37,633 nucleotides of DNA from Actinomycetales bacterium (GTDB lineage Bacteria > Actinomycetota > Actinomycetes > Actinomycetales > DASROP01). The number at the start of each line of letters is the position of its first letter. Position 1 is the first letter of the stretch. The position numbers and the translations under genes were made by a program. Shown piece after piece: positions 16,577-20,853 of the stretch. The DNA is taken from positions 1-37,633 of the forward strand of contig JBBSNO010000001.1 of assembly GCA_038232615.1 (NCBI GenBank), in the 5' to 3' direction. The notes beneath the pieces were generated by a model. That model was not told where the DNA came from, ran no database searches, and was given only the letters and a program-made list of their open reading frames with translations.

Positions 16577-16735
16577 ATGACACCTGGCATGAGCAGTGTG
16601 AGCGCCGGGATGCACCGGGCGACGCCAGTGGTCGTCGGGGTGCTCCTGGCCGCCTACGGGCTGGCAGTGCTGCTGGGGACGCCGGGTGCTCCGGGGATCG
16701 TGCTCACCGAAAATGTGGCGCGCCACATTTTCCAC
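16577..16735 (+). pseudogene. 5' fragment of a membrane-sensor GGDEF-type gene interrupted by the RIT element
   Basis: Encodes a hydrophobic N-terminus (...VVVGVLLAAYGLAVLLG...IVLTENVARHIFH). The frame then runs into the element's terminal repeat at 16736. It continues in frame at 20206. Confidence 0.55.
16710..16731. repeat. Perfect 22-bp palindrome AAAATGTGGCGCGCCACATTTT abutting the RIT left end
   Basis: Read directly from the sequence. Each half carries ATGTGGC, the core of the element's CGTTATGTGGCCGGT motif. There is no counterpart outside the right end. Confidence 0.9.
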
Positions 16736-16764
16736 GTTCTGTGCCCGCCCGCGTTATGTGGCCG
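16736..16764 (+). repeat. RIT left terminal inverted repeat (contains motif copy L1, CGTTATGTGGCCG, 16752-16764)
   Basis: Perfect reverse complement of 20177-20205. Confidence 0.9.
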
Positions 16765-16815
16765 TGGGGGTCGACGTCCCTGGCGCGCAGCGATGAACGG
16801 CCAAGCGCGGCCGTT

Positions 16816-16830
16816 ACCGGCCACATAACG
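16816..16830 (-). repeat. RIT left subterminal motif copy L2 (CGTTATGTGGCCGGT in reverse orientation)
   Basis: ACCGGCCACATAACG on the plus strand. Forms an inverted pair with L1 across a 51-nt spacer. Lies 57 nt upstream of the ritA ATG. Confidence 0.85.
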
Positions 16831-16887
16831 TTCGCCGCTCGATGGATGGTGCTTCCTCCACCCCTCACGGAGAGAGGAAGTTGTCCC

Positions 16888-18150
16888 ATGTTGGAGGAGT
16901 ACTTCGTCAGGCCGGCGACGGTCGATCGGATCCGCGGGTCCTGGATCGCCGCAGAGATCGAGAACTACCTGGTGTGGATGGTCGAACGGGGTTACAGCCC
17001 CAAGAGCATCTGGCGTCGAGTCCCGATCGCCTTCGCGTTCGGCGAGTTCGCTGGTGCGCGAGGGGCGAGCGGGATCGGCGAGTTGCCAGCGCAAGTCGAG
17101 ATGTTCGTGGCCGATCGGGTGAGGCGCCACGGAGCCCGCACGGGGTCGACGCGGCCGATGTCGAAGGAGGTCCGGGGTCCTGTCGAGCAGATGCTCTCGG
17201 TTGTGCTCCCTGGCTTCGAGCCCAGCGGCCGGCCGCAGCACGCCCAGCCCTTCGTCGATGTCGTCCCTGGCTTCTTCGACTACCTGGTCGAGGAGCGTGG
17301 CCTTCGCCCGGCCTCGGTGCTTGGCTACCGCCATCATCTCGACCGGTTTGAGGCATACCTGCGAAGGATCGGTGTCGAGTCGATCCGGGAGCTCTCCCCG
17401 ACGATCCTGAGCGCCTTCGTTGTCGAGCGCGCCGCCGCGGGGCTGGCCAAGAGCACGGTGCGCGATGGTGCTGGTGTGCTGCGGGTGTTCCTGCGCTACG
17501 CCCACCGAGAAGGTGTCCTGGTCACCGACCTGAGCGCCGCCGTCGGGTGGCCGCAGGTCTACCGGCTCTCGACCATCCCCCGTTCCATCTCCTGGGACGA
17601 CGTCAACCGGGTCCTGGCCGGGGTCGACCGCAGGACCGCGGCGGGCAGGCGCGACTTCGCCATCTTGCTCCTGCTGGTCACCTACGGCCTGCGCGGCCGC
17701 GAGATCGCCGCGCTCACCCTGGACGACATCGACTGGAAGCGTGAGCGCCTGGCGATCCCCGAGCGCAAAGCCGGCCACTCCACGGCGTTTCCCCTCTCCG
17801 CCGTGGTCGGCGAGGCCATCCTGGACTATCTCCAACACGGACGTCCCGCGACGGCCGATCGCCACGTGTTCTTCCGGGCCACAGCTCCCCGCCAGCCGAT
17901 CGGCGCTGCCGGGGTGTCGTCGCGGGCCCGCCACTACCTGCTCAAGGCAGGTGTCGACGTCCCCCGGCCGGGCTCGCACACCTTGCGCCACTGCGCGGTG
18001 CAGCGTCTCGTCGATGCGCACTTCGACCTGAAGACGATCGGGGACTTCGTCGGGCACCGCTCGGCACGATCGACCGAGGTCTACGCCAAGGTCGCCGTCG
18101 AGGCGTTGCGCGAGGTCGCCCTGGGCGACGGTGAGGCGGTCCTGTCATGA
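16888..18150 (+). CDS. ritA: Tyrosine recombinase, RIT element first gene (RitA-like, long N-terminal domain)
   Basis: 420 aa. GGAGAGAGGAAG RBS 8 nt upstream of ATG 16888. Catalytic Arg in YGLRGREIAAL, HTLRHCAV (HxxR), FVGHRSARSTEVYAKV (His and Tyr). Confidence 0.88.
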   Translation: MLEEYFVRPATVDRIRGSWIAAEIENYLVWMVERGYSPKSIWRRVPIAFAFGEFAGARGASGIGELPAQVEMFVADRVRRHGARTGSTRPMSKEVRGPVEQMLSVVLPGFEPSGRPQHAQPFVDVVPGFFDYLVEERGLRPASVLGYRHHLDRFEAYLRRIGVESIRELSPTILSAFVVERAAAGLAKSTVRDGAGVLRVFLRYAHREGVLVTDLSAAVGWPQVYRLSTIPRSISWDDVNRVLAGVDRRTAAGRRDFAILLLLVTYGLRGREIAALTLDDIDWKRERLAIPERKAGHSTAFPLSAVVGEAILDYLQHGRPATADRHVFFRATAPRQPIGAAGVSSRARHYLLKAGVDVPRPGSHTLRHCAVQRLVDAHFDLKTIGDFVGHRSARSTEVYAKVAVEALREVALGDGEAVLS

Positions 18151-19112
18151 ACGACAGCCTCGTCACCGCCGTCGCCGACTTCTTGGCCCACAAGCGGGCC
18201 CTCGGCCGCAAGTATCTGACCGAGGAGGCGACGCTGCGTCTGCTCCTGGCCTTTACCAGCCAGCACGGGGTGCAGGACCTGGGTCAGCTCACACCCTGCC
18301 TGCTCGATGAGTTCGTCGCCTCCAGGCCCAGGGAGCGAGCCCGCAGCTTCAACCACCTCGTCGGGATCCTCGGCTGCTTCCTGGACTGGGCCGTGACCCA
18401 GCAGCGCCTGGATACGTCGCCGTTGCGCAGCACCCGGCGACGGGACACGGCCCGGCGCCTGCCGTTCCTCTTCGACGCCCCCCGCGCCCGCCAGGTACTC
18501 GAGGCGGCCGCGGCCCTTCCCGACAATGCCAGGGCCACCGATCGCGGGCCGACCTACCACGCCATCTTTGCCCTCTGCTACGGCCTCGGGCTCAGAGCCG
18601 GAGAGGCGTGCGGCCTGCGCGTGGGCGACGTCGACGTCGACCGGCAGCTCCTGGTCGTGCGCGGTGGCAAGTTCGGCAAGAGCCGCCTGGTCCCCCACGG
18701 GCCGCGCCTGGGCAACCTCCTGGCCCGCCAGCTCGACCGCCGAAGGAGCGACGGCACCCCAGAACCTGACGCGCCGCTGTTCAGCTTCGACGGTCGGCGC
18801 AGCGTCCACCCCGGTAGCGCGAGCCAGACCTTCCACCGGCTCGTCGTCGAGCTGGCCTTCCGGGCCCCGGACGGCGTCGAGCCGCCCCATCTTCACTGCC
18901 TGCGTCATTCTTTCGCCGTCGGGTGCCTGCTGCGGTGGTATCGGGACGGTCTCGACCCCTCGACGCGCCTCTACCAGCTCTCGACGTTCATGGGCCACGT
19001 CGACCCCACCTCCACCGCCATCTACCTGACCATCACCCCCGAACTGCTCGTCGAGGCCAACCGGCGATTCGAAGCCTTCGCCGAGCCGGCATGGTCGAAG
19101 GCCAAGCCGTGA
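18147..19112 (+). CDS. ritB: Tyrosine recombinase, RIT element second gene (RitB-like)
   Basis: 321 aa. ATGA overlap with the ritA stop. GLGLRAGEACGL, HCLRHSFAV, FMGHVDPTSTAIYLT. Confidence 0.88.
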   Translation: MNDSLVTAVADFLAHKRALGRKYLTEEATLRLLLAFTSQHGVQDLGQLTPCLLDEFVASRPRERARSFNHLVGILGCFLDWAVTQQRLDTSPLRSTRRRDTARRLPFLFDAPRARQVLEAAAALPDNARATDRGPTYHAIFALCYGLGLRAGEACGLRVGDVDVDRQLLVVRGGKFGKSRLVPHGPRLGNLLARQLDRRRSDGTPEPDAPLFSFDGRRSVHPGSASQTFHRLVVELAFRAPDGVEPPHLHCLRHSFAVGCLLRWYRDGLDPSTRLYQLSTFMGHVDPTSTAIYLTITPELLVEANRRFEAFAEPAWSKAKP

Positions 19113-20119
19113 CCGGCACGCGGCCGCTGGGGCCGCTGGTCCACTCCTTCTTCATCGACCACCTGGTCACCGTGAAGGGGCTGCGGCCCGCGTCGGTGCG
19201 CAGCTACCGCGACACCATCCGGCTCCTGCTGTGCTTCGTGGCCCAGGACAGGAGAACGAAGATCACCAAACTCACCGTCGAGGACCTGAGCTTCGAGCGG
19301 GTCCTGGGCTTCCTGCGCCACCTGGAGGACGACCGCCACAATCATGTCCGGACCCGCAACCAGCGACTGGCGGTGGTGCACACCCTGTTCGACTACATCG
19401 CCAGCCGAGACCCGCAGATGCTCGGCGTCTGCCAGCAGGTGACGGCCATCCCGATGAAGCGGGCAGCCCCCGCCCAGACGCACTTCCTCGAGCGCGACGA
19501 GGTGGAGGCGCTGCTGCGGCACCTGCCCCGCACGGGTCGCCTCGCACTGCGAGACCACGCCCTGCTCCTGTTCCTCTACAACACCGGAGCGCGGGCCCAG
19601 GAAGTGGCCGACCTGCGAGCCGGACACCTCGAGCTCGGAGAAGCCGGCGTAGTCCGCCTCCACGGCAAGGGCGACAAGTGGCGGACCTGCCCACTATGGG
19701 GCCAGACAACGGAACTGCTGGCCGAGCTGCTCGACGCGTCCAACAACCTCCCCCCGATGGACGCCCCCGTCTTCTGTTCGGCGACGGGCGAGGCCCTGAC
19801 GCGGTTCGGCATCTACAAGATCGTGCGGCGCCACGCCGGGCACCTTGACGACCCTCGCACCAACCGCCGGGTCAGTCCACACATCTTCCGCCACACCGCA
19901 GCAATGCACTTGCTCGAGGCCGGCGTCGAGGTGAACGTCATCCGTGGCTGGCTCGGGCACGCCGACCTCACCACGACGAACCGCTACGCCGAGATCAACA
20001 CCAGAGCAAAGATCGAGGCACTTCGAAACACCGAACCGCCCGGTGTTTCGGCGGGACCCCGCACTCGTCCCGTCTGGCGCTCCGACGAGTCGCTGCTCAA
20101 CTGGCTGTCCTCCCTCTGA
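19109..20119 (+). CDS. ritC: Tyrosine recombinase, RIT element third gene (RitC-like)
   Basis: 336 aa from GTG 19109 (GTGA overlap with the ritB stop, GAAGG 7 nt upstream). ATG 19091 is an alternative start. NTGARAQEVADL, HIFRHTAAMHLL, WLGHADLTTTNRYAEI. Confidence 0.86.
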   Translation: MTGTRPLGPLVHSFFIDHLVTVKGLRPASVRSYRDTIRLLLCFVAQDRRTKITKLTVEDLSFERVLGFLRHLEDDRHNHVRTRNQRLAVVHTLFDYIASRDPQMLGVCQQVTAIPMKRAAPAQTHFLERDEVEALLRHLPRTGRLALRDHALLLFLYNTGARAQEVADLRAGHLELGEAGVVRLHGKGDKWRTCPLWGQTTELLAELLDASNNLPPMDAPVFCSATGEALTRFGIYKIVRRHAGHLDDPRTNRRVSPHIFRHTAAMHLLEAGVEVNVIRGWLGHADLTTTNRYAEINTRAKIEALRNTEPPGVSAGPRTRPVWRSDESLLNWLSSL

Positions 20120-20120
20120 T

Positions 20121-20135
20121 CGTTATGTGGCCGGT
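20121..20135 (+). repeat. RIT right subterminal motif copy R1 (CGTTATGTGGCCGGT)
   Basis: Starts 2 nt after the ritC stop codon. Forms an inverted pair with R2 (20175-20189) across a 39-nt spacer that contains a small TGATC-CCAA-GATCA hairpin. Confidence 0.85.
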
Positions 20136-20176
20136 GGCGGAACGTTGATCCCAAGATCACTGGCATCGGCCGTCAC

Positions 20177-20205
20177 CGGCCACATAACGCGGGCGGGCAC
20201 AGAAC
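20177..20205 (-). repeat. RIT right terminal inverted repeat (contains motif copy R2, 20175-20189)
   Basis: Perfect reverse complement of 16736-16764. Confidence 0.9.
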
Positions 20206-20853
20206 CTGGACAACGTGGTCACGACGGTCGCGGCGTTCCTCGCCGCCGGGTGCTGCGTCGCCACGGGCCTGCGGGCCCGCACGCGTGCCCGCGCTGCCTG
20301 GTGGCTGCTGGGCTCGTCCGCCGGGTCGTGGGGGGCGGGTCAGGCGCACTGGTCGGTCAACGAGCTGCTCCTGCACAACCCCGTCCCCTTCCCGTCCCTG
20401 GCGGACGCCGGCTTCCTCGGGTTCCCCGTGCTCGCGGCGGCGGGCCTCTGGCTGACGGCCGGGCGCGCGATCACCTCCGCGTCGCGGCTGCGTGCCGGGA
20501 TGGACGGCGCCCTGGTCGCGGCCGGGGTCTTCACGGCGTCCTGGACGACGGTGCTCGGCCCGGTCTACCGCGGCGGCGCCGACACCCCGTTCGCAGTGGT
20601 CATCTCGGTCGCCTACCCCGTGGGTGACGTGCTCCTCGTCGCCCTCTCGCTCCTGCTGCTCTCCCGCGTCCGTGGCCGACGGCCTCTACGCCCTGGAGGG
20701 GGTGACGGAGTGGTCTCGGTGAGGGTCAGTGTCGGCATCGCCGGCATCGTCCCGGGCGCCGACCTCGACTCGGCAGCCGAGATGCTGATGCGGACGGCCG
20801 ACCACGCCATGTACGCCGACAAGACGGTCCAGAAGATCAGCGCCGACGTCTGA
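20206..20853 (+). pseudogene. 3' fragment of the interrupted membrane-sensor GGDEF gene, additionally carrying an internal deletion
   Basis: The membrane domain (AAWWLLGSSAGSWGAGQAHWSVNELLL..PFPSLADAGFLGFPVLAAAGL...) joins directly to the extreme C-terminus of a GGDEF domain (VSVGIAGIVPGADLDSAAEMLMRTADHAMYADK). The GGDEF motif and most of the domain are absent. Confidence 0.65.

Follow-up and report, generated by a model that had tools for sequence, protein, structure and literature searches.

A palindrome at one end of a RIT element belongs to the element and probably forms part of a dif-like recombination site

A perfect palindrome lies immediately outside the left terminal repeat of a RIT element in a 37,633-nucleotide stretch of DNA from an Actinomycetales bacterium (contig JBBSNO010000001.1, positions 1 to 37,633 of the forward strand; hereafter the window), and comparison with an empty site showed it to be inserted DNA that belongs to the element. 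The explanation that best accounts for the data, and that we consider probable, is that the palindrome is borne by the RIT element and consists of two predicted recombinase-binding arms, that these arms take part in dif-like 11-6-11 core sites, and that crossover would occur in the spacer of such a core via joined ends. For this scheme we infer a joined-end intermediate, a crossover inside the spacer and a binding of particular Rit proteins to particular arms.

Around the left junction the window reads ...GTGCTCACCGAAAATGTGGCGCGCCACATTTTCCACGTTCTGTGCCC..., and direct reading of this region identified AAAATGTGGCGCGCCACATTTT at positions 16710-16731 as a perfect 22-bp palindrome, which one more base pair extends to 24 bp (GAAAATGTGGCGCGCCACATTTTC, 16709-16732). 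Its outer arm is AAATGTGGCG (16711-16720) and its inner arm is CGCCACATTT (16721-16730). With up to 3 mismatches allowed, the palindrome matched once in the window and not at all in 100 shuffles, and with up to 4 mismatches it matched once in the whole assembly (2.8 Mb, 349 contigs, 72.6% G+C); it is real and beyond chance. All six copies of the motif ATGTGGC in the window fall within the palindrome or the four sub-terminal sites of the element, a count of 6 against 2.7 predicted by chance that was reached in 5 of 100 shuffles. The codons that the palindrome contributes are scarce in the host genome, where, as computed from 421 long ORFs, GAA makes up 7% of Glu codons, AAT 2% of Asn codons and ATT 1.6% of Ile codons; the pentamer AAAAT occurs 28 times on both strands of the 2.8-Mb assembly. 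The initial annotation of this DNA had described the 22-bp palindrome, the presence in it of ATGTGGC as the core of the element's motif, the rarity of its codons and its distance of 4 nt from a 29-bp left repeat (which starts at 16736), and each of these statements was borne out; the genome-wide count that it had proposed gave the single copy mentioned above. It was mistaken in stating that the palindrome has no equivalent at the right end, since the inverted repeat runs 13 bases past the 29 bp, giving 42 nt that are 93% complementary, and in this extension CCACATTTTCCACG, the inner arm of the palindrome, is paired with CCACGTTGTCCAGG of the right flank, the partner there being CTGGACAACGTGG. 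The right-flank half GACAACGTGG, which is host DNA, agrees with the outer arm GAAAATGTGG in 8 of 10 bases.

The element itself is a cargo-free RIT element, and the inserted DNA is ordered as palindrome, spacer, RIT and spacer. At the left junction, an outer 6-bp spacer CACCGA (16705-16710), composed of the host-derived n4 CACC, which fits the host codon ACC, and an invariant GA, is proposed as the candidate crossover region. The inner arm is separated from the left terminus by an inner 6-bp spacer TCCACG (16731-16736), a spacing that was fixed in 52 of 52 palindrome ends among related elements. The left terminal arm TTCTGTGCCC (16737-16746, forward strand) is the outermost part of the 29-bp inverted repeat (16736-16764) and is followed by a left sub-terminal pair (16752-16830) made up of CGTTATGTGGCCG at 16752-16764 on the forward strand and CGGCCACATAACG at 16818-16830 in inverted orientation. 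Three tyrosine recombinase genes follow on the forward strand: ritA (16888-18150, 420 aa, with a Phage_integrase domain and a SAM-like N domain), ritB (18147-19112, 321 aa, joined to ritA by an ATGA overlap) and ritC (19109-20119, 336 aa, joined to ritB by a GTGA overlap). Beyond them lie the right sub-terminal pair (20121-20189; CGTTATGTGGCCG at 20121-20133 and CGGCCACATAACG at 20177-20189), the right terminal arm GGGCACAGAA (20195-20204, reverse strand), which is the reverse complement of TTCTGTGCCC, and a right 6-bp spacer CCTGGA (20205-20210), whose n4 CCTG came with the element and differs from both the inner n4 CGTG and the host n4 CACC. The trio is thus bounded by perfect 29-bp inverted repeats; at related loci the repeats reach up to about 100 bp. 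RitA, RitB and RitC all matched Phage_integrase, and the catalytic signature R..K..HxxR..H/W..Y, read from the translations, is kept in each of them (RitA ...HTLRH...GHRS..EVY; RitB ...HCLRH...GHVD..AIY; RitC ...HIFRH...GHAD..NRY). Their nearest NCBIfam models are XerC/XerD, at 91-154 bits against cut-offs of 330-335, and by this profile measure the three proteins are classed as Xer-like, not Xer. RitA is 47-55% identical to members of trios on plasmids of Paraburkholderia, Mesorhizobium and Rhizobium, and its identity to that of pHG1 in C. necator H16 is 37.5%. No second copy was present in the 2.8-Mb host assembly, in which the 29-mer repeat and the palindrome are both single-copy.

The extent of the insert was defined with an uninterrupted orthologue of the host gene. 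The 5′ part of this gene, which encodes a membrane sensor of the GGDEF family, occupies 16577-16710 on the forward strand (MTPGMSS...GIVLT, then the GA of an Asp codon), and the 3′ part runs from 20211 to 20853 on the same strand, beginning with CAACGTGGTC..., i.e., with the rest of Asp-Asn followed by VVTTVAAF...; the target-derived arm CAACGTGGTC itself covers 20211-20220. A protein search yielded an orthologue (P0006/L138) of 86% identity on a 79-kb contig, with a flavin reductase gene upstream in both this contig and the window. Across the site the orthologue reads ...GTGCTGATCGACAATGTCGTCACG... and contains no palindrome. The 5′ part of the window gene aligns with it as far as ...GTGCTSAYCGA and the 3′ part from GACAATGTCGTCACGACG onward, the left flank being alignable to ...CTCACCGA and the right flank from GACAACGTGGTCACG, so that both flanks meet at CTGGTGCTGATCGACAATGTCGTCACGACG, in codons CTG GTG CTG ATC GAC AAT GTC GTC ACG ACG (L V L I D N V V T T). 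Since the two flanks meet in the empty site, the insert (16711-20210, forward strand) measures 3,500 bp including the palindrome, not 3,470 bp; it can equally be read as 16709-20208, because GA is common to both junctions. The host protein reads ...LVL(T/I)DNVVTT... at this point. A search of 40 relatives gave paralogue-level matches alone (35-50% identity); these have D-D/N there and lack the 10 additional residues. Scans of genome and metagenome contigs with the host protein gave no matches. Separately from the insertion, the host gene carries a second lesion at window positions 20665-20720, an internal deletion: after ...LLLLSRVRGRRP, P0006 goes on with YLLLLMLAPIAM... for about 200 more residues, whereas the window jumps to LRPGGGDGVVSVRVSVGIAGIV..., the tail of a GGDEF domain.

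To place the palindrome in a wider context, we collected related copies, comprising 80 loci from a RitA scan and 21 from a scan with the commonest palindrome, which after removal of duplicates gave 117 non-redundant RIT ends. The results showed that the same kind of palindrome stands directly against the terminus at 52 of these ends. It is 24-32 bp long, has the form n4-GA-WWATGTKSC..GSMACATWW-TC-n4 and keeps a constant register relative to the terminal arm (TTCTGTGCCC or TTATGTGCCC), with a 6-bp spacer between them; GA is present in the spacer at 49 of the 52 ends, and n4 is variable. The related copies have RitA proteins of 54-88% identity and come from Actinomycetota, Chloroflexota, Acidobacteriota and Proteobacteria, and the palindrome is kept even where RitA is 54-57% identical (Proteobacteria, Acidobacteriota). 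The same layout is found in a cultured strain, on the complete plasmid NC_020061.1 of R. tropici CIAT 899; many of the other loci come from metagenome-assembled genomes, in which repeats can be misjoined. Both arms co-vary between lineages (TTCCGCGGAA, TGGCGCGCCA, TGCCCGGGCA, TTCCCGGGAA), and one identical 24-mer, GAAAATGTTCCGCGGAACATTTTC, occurs in 21 loci with different targets. Among loci that could be oriented, the palindrome adjoins the ritA end of the trio in 19 and the ritC end in 15, and among 40 complete elements 29 have one palindrome, ten have none and one has two. Near the trio of the archetype on pHG1, a copy that is rearranged and cut by ISAe1, no palindrome with arms of at least 8 bp was detected. 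Variants were also seen: L024 has a degenerate inner arm (GCGCTCATTATC), and in L135 the variable spacer beside the terminus has 3 nt, not 4 nt. The two-palindrome element (L018, identical to L128:96-3602) is flanked by two different 5′ halves of istA, the transposase gene of IS21-family elements, in inverted orientation. Solo palindromes GAAAATGTTCCGCGGAACATTTTC with no adjoining RIT were found at L132:3212-3235 and L126:848-871. In the former, the 5′ halves of two different IS21 istA genes meet head to head at the palindrome, with open N-terminal halves of 227 aa and 254 aa. The latter is a second candidate for such a joint; the 95 bp of its right flank that could be analyzed contain only a 34-aa open frame, and the head-to-head arrangement is suggested there by an in-frame reading of the flank.

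These comparisons bear on the remaining proposals of the initial annotation. It had read ENVARHIF as part of the reconstructed host frame, and the stretch does keep the frame, as its 30 nt are a multiple of three, which is also why removal of only 16736-20205 leaves the gene in frame; it is not host coding sequence, however, and ‘ENVARHIFHL’ is element DNA that is in frame by chance. Of its two readings, that of an extra, asymmetric outermost site belonging to the element is supported by the empty-site orthologue, which lacks the palindrome, and by the 52 related RIT ends that have one, as found when the flanks of other RITs were inspected as it had suggested. Its other reading, a host structure serving as target, is not supported as worded by the inspection of the uninterrupted orthologue (P0006/L138) that it had also proposed, the palindrome being missing from uninterrupted targets. 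The idea of mimicry attached to that reading is right in part: the true target half (GACAAC; GACAATGT in the orthologue) does resemble the palindrome arm GAAAATGT, with which it has GA.AA..T in common, but the palindrome itself is not the target.

The end without a palindrome disclosed the target. Read outward, this end adjoins host DNA of the form n4-GACAAC-n-T, GAYAAY being present at 53 of 64 such ends. Most flanks are parts of split IS21-family istA genes, of which the 5′ halves match positions 3-183 of the transposase profile and end in ...FFGGVP..VVP, and the 3′ halves match positions 184-294 and begin with DNLK..V. The break falls at one and the same residue in more than 12 istA genes, which are 37-79% identical, and these splits are separate events. 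Intact istA copies read GTGATCCCGGACAACATGAAG, without a palindrome. Intact relatives are present in another genome; no intact copy of the same IS was found in the genomes of L014 and L030, and one contig stops exactly at the breakpoint. One further target is an IS630 transposase gene, split again at D-N. Together, these data showed that the target is GACAAC, mostly as the catalytic Asp-Asn codons (profile position 183/184) of IS21-family transposase genes. The window site CTCACCGACAACGTGG, within the target stretch CTCACCGACAACGTGGTC, resembles the ‘LTDNE’ type of istA site, and the interrupted window gene is not a transposase; the window insertion is off-target, on a look-alike site (LT|DNVV) in a membrane sensor gene. 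A search of the window's own assembly for istA relatives at E <= 1e-20 gave none. A sub-lineage with arms GGATATGTGCCG (L049, L050 and L052) uses another target, CAACGG|CAAGGGCGAC (N-G-K-G-D, in a Cys-rich protein), and in L049 and L050 the hexamer CAACGG is the same at all three positions. At L140 (NC_020061.1, 471924-476952), on plasmid pRtrCIAT899b of R. tropici CIAT 899 with its RIT at 472.6-476.0 kb, both CDS beside the trio that RefSeq annotates as ‘transposase’ are halves of one istA, and istB follows. In contig C34 of genome G041, bases 1-520 hold a second istA, 80% identical to that of L014, which ends at the contig edge; the alignment stops 4 bases before the end of the query, which itself ends just before the RIT insertion point, as if a further RIT insertion had interrupted the assembly there.

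The palindrome is most likely a pair of back-to-back recombinase-binding arms (AAATGTGGCG / CGCCACATTT). A palindrome arm, the 6-bp spacer (n4 + GA) and the terminal arm (TTCTGTGCCC) would then form a dif-like 11-6-11 core site; the consensus of 52 such sites is CGGGCACAGAA nnnCGA AnATGTTCCGC, i.e., two inverted arms of ~11 bp around a 6-bp center. The dif site of E. coli is GGTGCGCATAA TGTATA TTATGTTAAAT, and the arms are identical to it at 12.2 of 22 positions, compared with 5.4 +/- 2.0 in shuffles. In a joined-end (circular) form, the right terminus would be followed by 6 bp, two successive arms, another 6 bp and the left terminus, so that two mirror-image core sites would be created. One of these would recombine, inside its 6-bp spacer, with a target reading 5′-flank-n4-GA-CAAC.... 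Such an event would leave the whole palindrome between the 5′ flank of the target and one terminus, with the other terminus against the GACAAC half. Which terminus receives the palindrome would be set solely by which of the two sites was used, and the element could lie in either orientation. A search for the joined-end sequence (right terminus, palindrome, left terminus) in the genome and metagenome contig collections gave no matches.

The variable n4 sequences bear on how the spacer would be exchanged. In the 29 one-palindrome elements, the three n4 (outer, inner and that of the other end) are all equal in 14, only outer and inner agree in 6, only inner and other agree in 4, outer equals other in 1, and all three differ in 4, including the window (CACC outer, from the host; CGTG inner; CCTG right). 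The classes outer = inner and inner = other are the two products that replication of a heteroduplex 6-bp overlap should give. Carry-over of n4 from the previous site fits 10 of 15 informative elements and does not simply fit the other 5, and the 4 of 29 elements with three different n4 need a history of more than one event. A crossover at the ends between two copies would give one two-palindrome copy, lying between two 5′ halves, and one copy without a palindrome, lying between two 3′ halves; excision of the former would leave a solo palindrome between two 5′ halves in head-to-head arrangement. Products as predicted for the end-swap exist, namely L018/L128 and ten palindrome-less elements, of which those inspected (e.g., L008 and L027) lie between two 3′ halves, and the predicted solo-palindrome joint is present in L132. 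Simple reciprocal end-swapping would yield the two classes in equal numbers, and the ratio of 10 palindrome-less elements to 1 two-palindrome element among the 40 complete ones speaks against the model; the excess could be accounted for if copies with two palindromes were able to excise and those with none remained trapped. In two palindrome-less RITs, L035 and L066, one target 3′ half is present on both sides in inverted orientation, over 30 bp in the former and 45 bp or more in the latter (where an IR alignment score of 336 indicates that the repeat is probably longer), as would be expected if ends had been swapped between two copies in identical IS elements.

We also considered whether the palindrome acts as a DNA structure (cruciform or hairpin) and not as two duplex binding arms, either through a cut at its center resembling telomere resolution, which would produce a hairpin-ended linear RIT, or as a single-stranded hairpin recognized during replication. 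Such a role accords with a symmetry that is perfect or near-perfect over 24-32 bp and often includes n4 (outer = inner in 20 of 29 elements), and with the folding of the single-stranded palindrome at -9.5 kcal/mol (z = -2.7), a fold energy that alone says little. Moreover, a mobilome study reported exonuclease-protected RIT DNA with no circle junction and proposed hairpin intermediates (PMC5737581); a circle junction was likewise absent from the genome and metagenome contigs searched here. However, an asymmetric center is tolerated in L021, L048, L049, L060, L061, L064, L072, L074 and L078, the arms have a TTATGT/ATGT core in common with the other sites of the element and with dif arms, as protein-binding sites would, and the two-, none- and solo-palindrome classes are explained by crossover in the spacer and not at the center, so that we regard a structural role as unlikely. 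It is far less probable still that the palindrome is made anew at each insertion, as a palindromic copy of the flank or a converted target duplication. In favor of this, GAAAATGTGG, the outer arm in the window, departs from the host half-site GACAACGTGG in just 2 of 10 bases, and the variable n4 frequently recurs in mirror image on the two sides of the palindrome. Past GA.AA..T, however, the arm runs ..TGTTCCG where the usual target has ..CCTGAAG, and the sequence of the palindrome tracks the RIT lineage, not the target, with the same 24-mer GAAAATGTTCCGCGGAACATTTTC in 21 loci whose targets differ; the idea of a converted target duplication was rejected on these grounds. A function mainly in expression, as a bidirectional terminator or insulator or as a rit operator, is just as improbable; the palindrome always lies on the 5′ side of the target gene and offers an A-tract, a GC stem and a T-tract, yet the terminator scan called no terminator, the T-run lies inside the stem, the 5′-side position follows from the recombination geometry alone, and an element that can have its palindrome beside ritA (19 loci) or ritC (15 loci) cannot be using it as a fixed promoter operator. 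That the palindrome was a pre-existing host or target structure recognized by the recombinases, as its frame and the likeness of its halves to the element's motif might suggest, has next to no probability given its absence from the orthologous empty site and the intact istA targets, its codons nearly unused in the host genome and its fixed distance from the RIT termini at 52 ends.

Returning to the element-borne double site with crossover in the spacer, a broader reading for which we see even chances is that this clade of RIT elements is a homing parasite of transposons, with a symmetric double-core site and a mismatch-tolerant overlap that is rewritten at each jump, and that it rearranges host genomes. 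If this is true, the homing would be aimed at the DNA for the second catalytic Asp (D-N) of IS21-family and occasionally IS630 transposases, and recombination between the ends of different copies would generate two-palindrome and palindrome-less copies and solo palindromes, with rearrangement of host genomes. RIT elements are widespread, and the palindrome, the empty site and about 100 related ends now define the boundaries exactly and provide a consensus for the target and a candidate site of recombination with defined arms and spacers, which makes target choice and the integration mechanism directly testable. For annotation, RIT boundaries set at the inverted repeats fall 30 bp short on one side, and split ‘transposase’ genes around RITs are halves of one IS21 istA gene.

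The RIT element is a known kind of element, of which the site architecture has apparently not been described. The RIT papers that were searched describe no one-sided palindrome. As in the elements described by Van Houdt et al. (2009/2012; PMC3414803, PMC2864759), and reportedly by Ricker et al. (2013), as ritA-ritB-ritC with terminal inverted repeats, the window element has three overlapping same-strand tyrosine recombinase genes, a size of about 3.5 kb, inverted repeats and no cargo, whereas published inverted repeats are 34-bp or longer. Published RIT insertions are in radC and an IS66 tnpA transposase gene, and RIT transposition has never been reproduced, target specificity and movement being listed as not tested (PMC10214605, Table 1). 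With Xer/dif systems the element shares an 11-6-11 layout (XerC arm, 6 bp, XerD arm), TTATGT-type arms and Rit proteins nearest to XerC/XerD. It differs from them in having three recombinases of its own that score far below Xer cut-offs, a target, GACAAC, in coding DNA and not at dif, two sites fused via the palindrome and a spacer that seems mismatch-tolerant. Nor is it an IMEX, which uses the host Xer at dif and has no recombinase of its own, given its three recombinases and its GACAAC target inside genes. In loxP and FRT (13-8-13), inverted arms likewise surround a short center, and telomere resolvase sites are perfect palindromes; in the RIT element, by contrast, the center of the palindrome is 0-2 bp and the crossover is likely to lie outside the palindrome, and RIT elements are not known to have hairpin ends. 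Tn554/SE-type elements resemble it in their several tyrosine recombinases and target specificity, and they carry a 6-bp donor flank to the new site, as the RIT element may also do; they have no inverted repeats or palindrome, but a fixed orientation and different accessory proteins (TnpC/Srap, Tfp). Finally, Tn916 and CTnDOT are large conjugative elements with one integrase plus Xis and no symmetric double site, but their coupling sequences offer a parallel, as these form a short overlap that needs no match to the target and their heteroduplex joints segregate at replication; heteroduplex segregation of this type fits the n4 patterns of the RIT elements.
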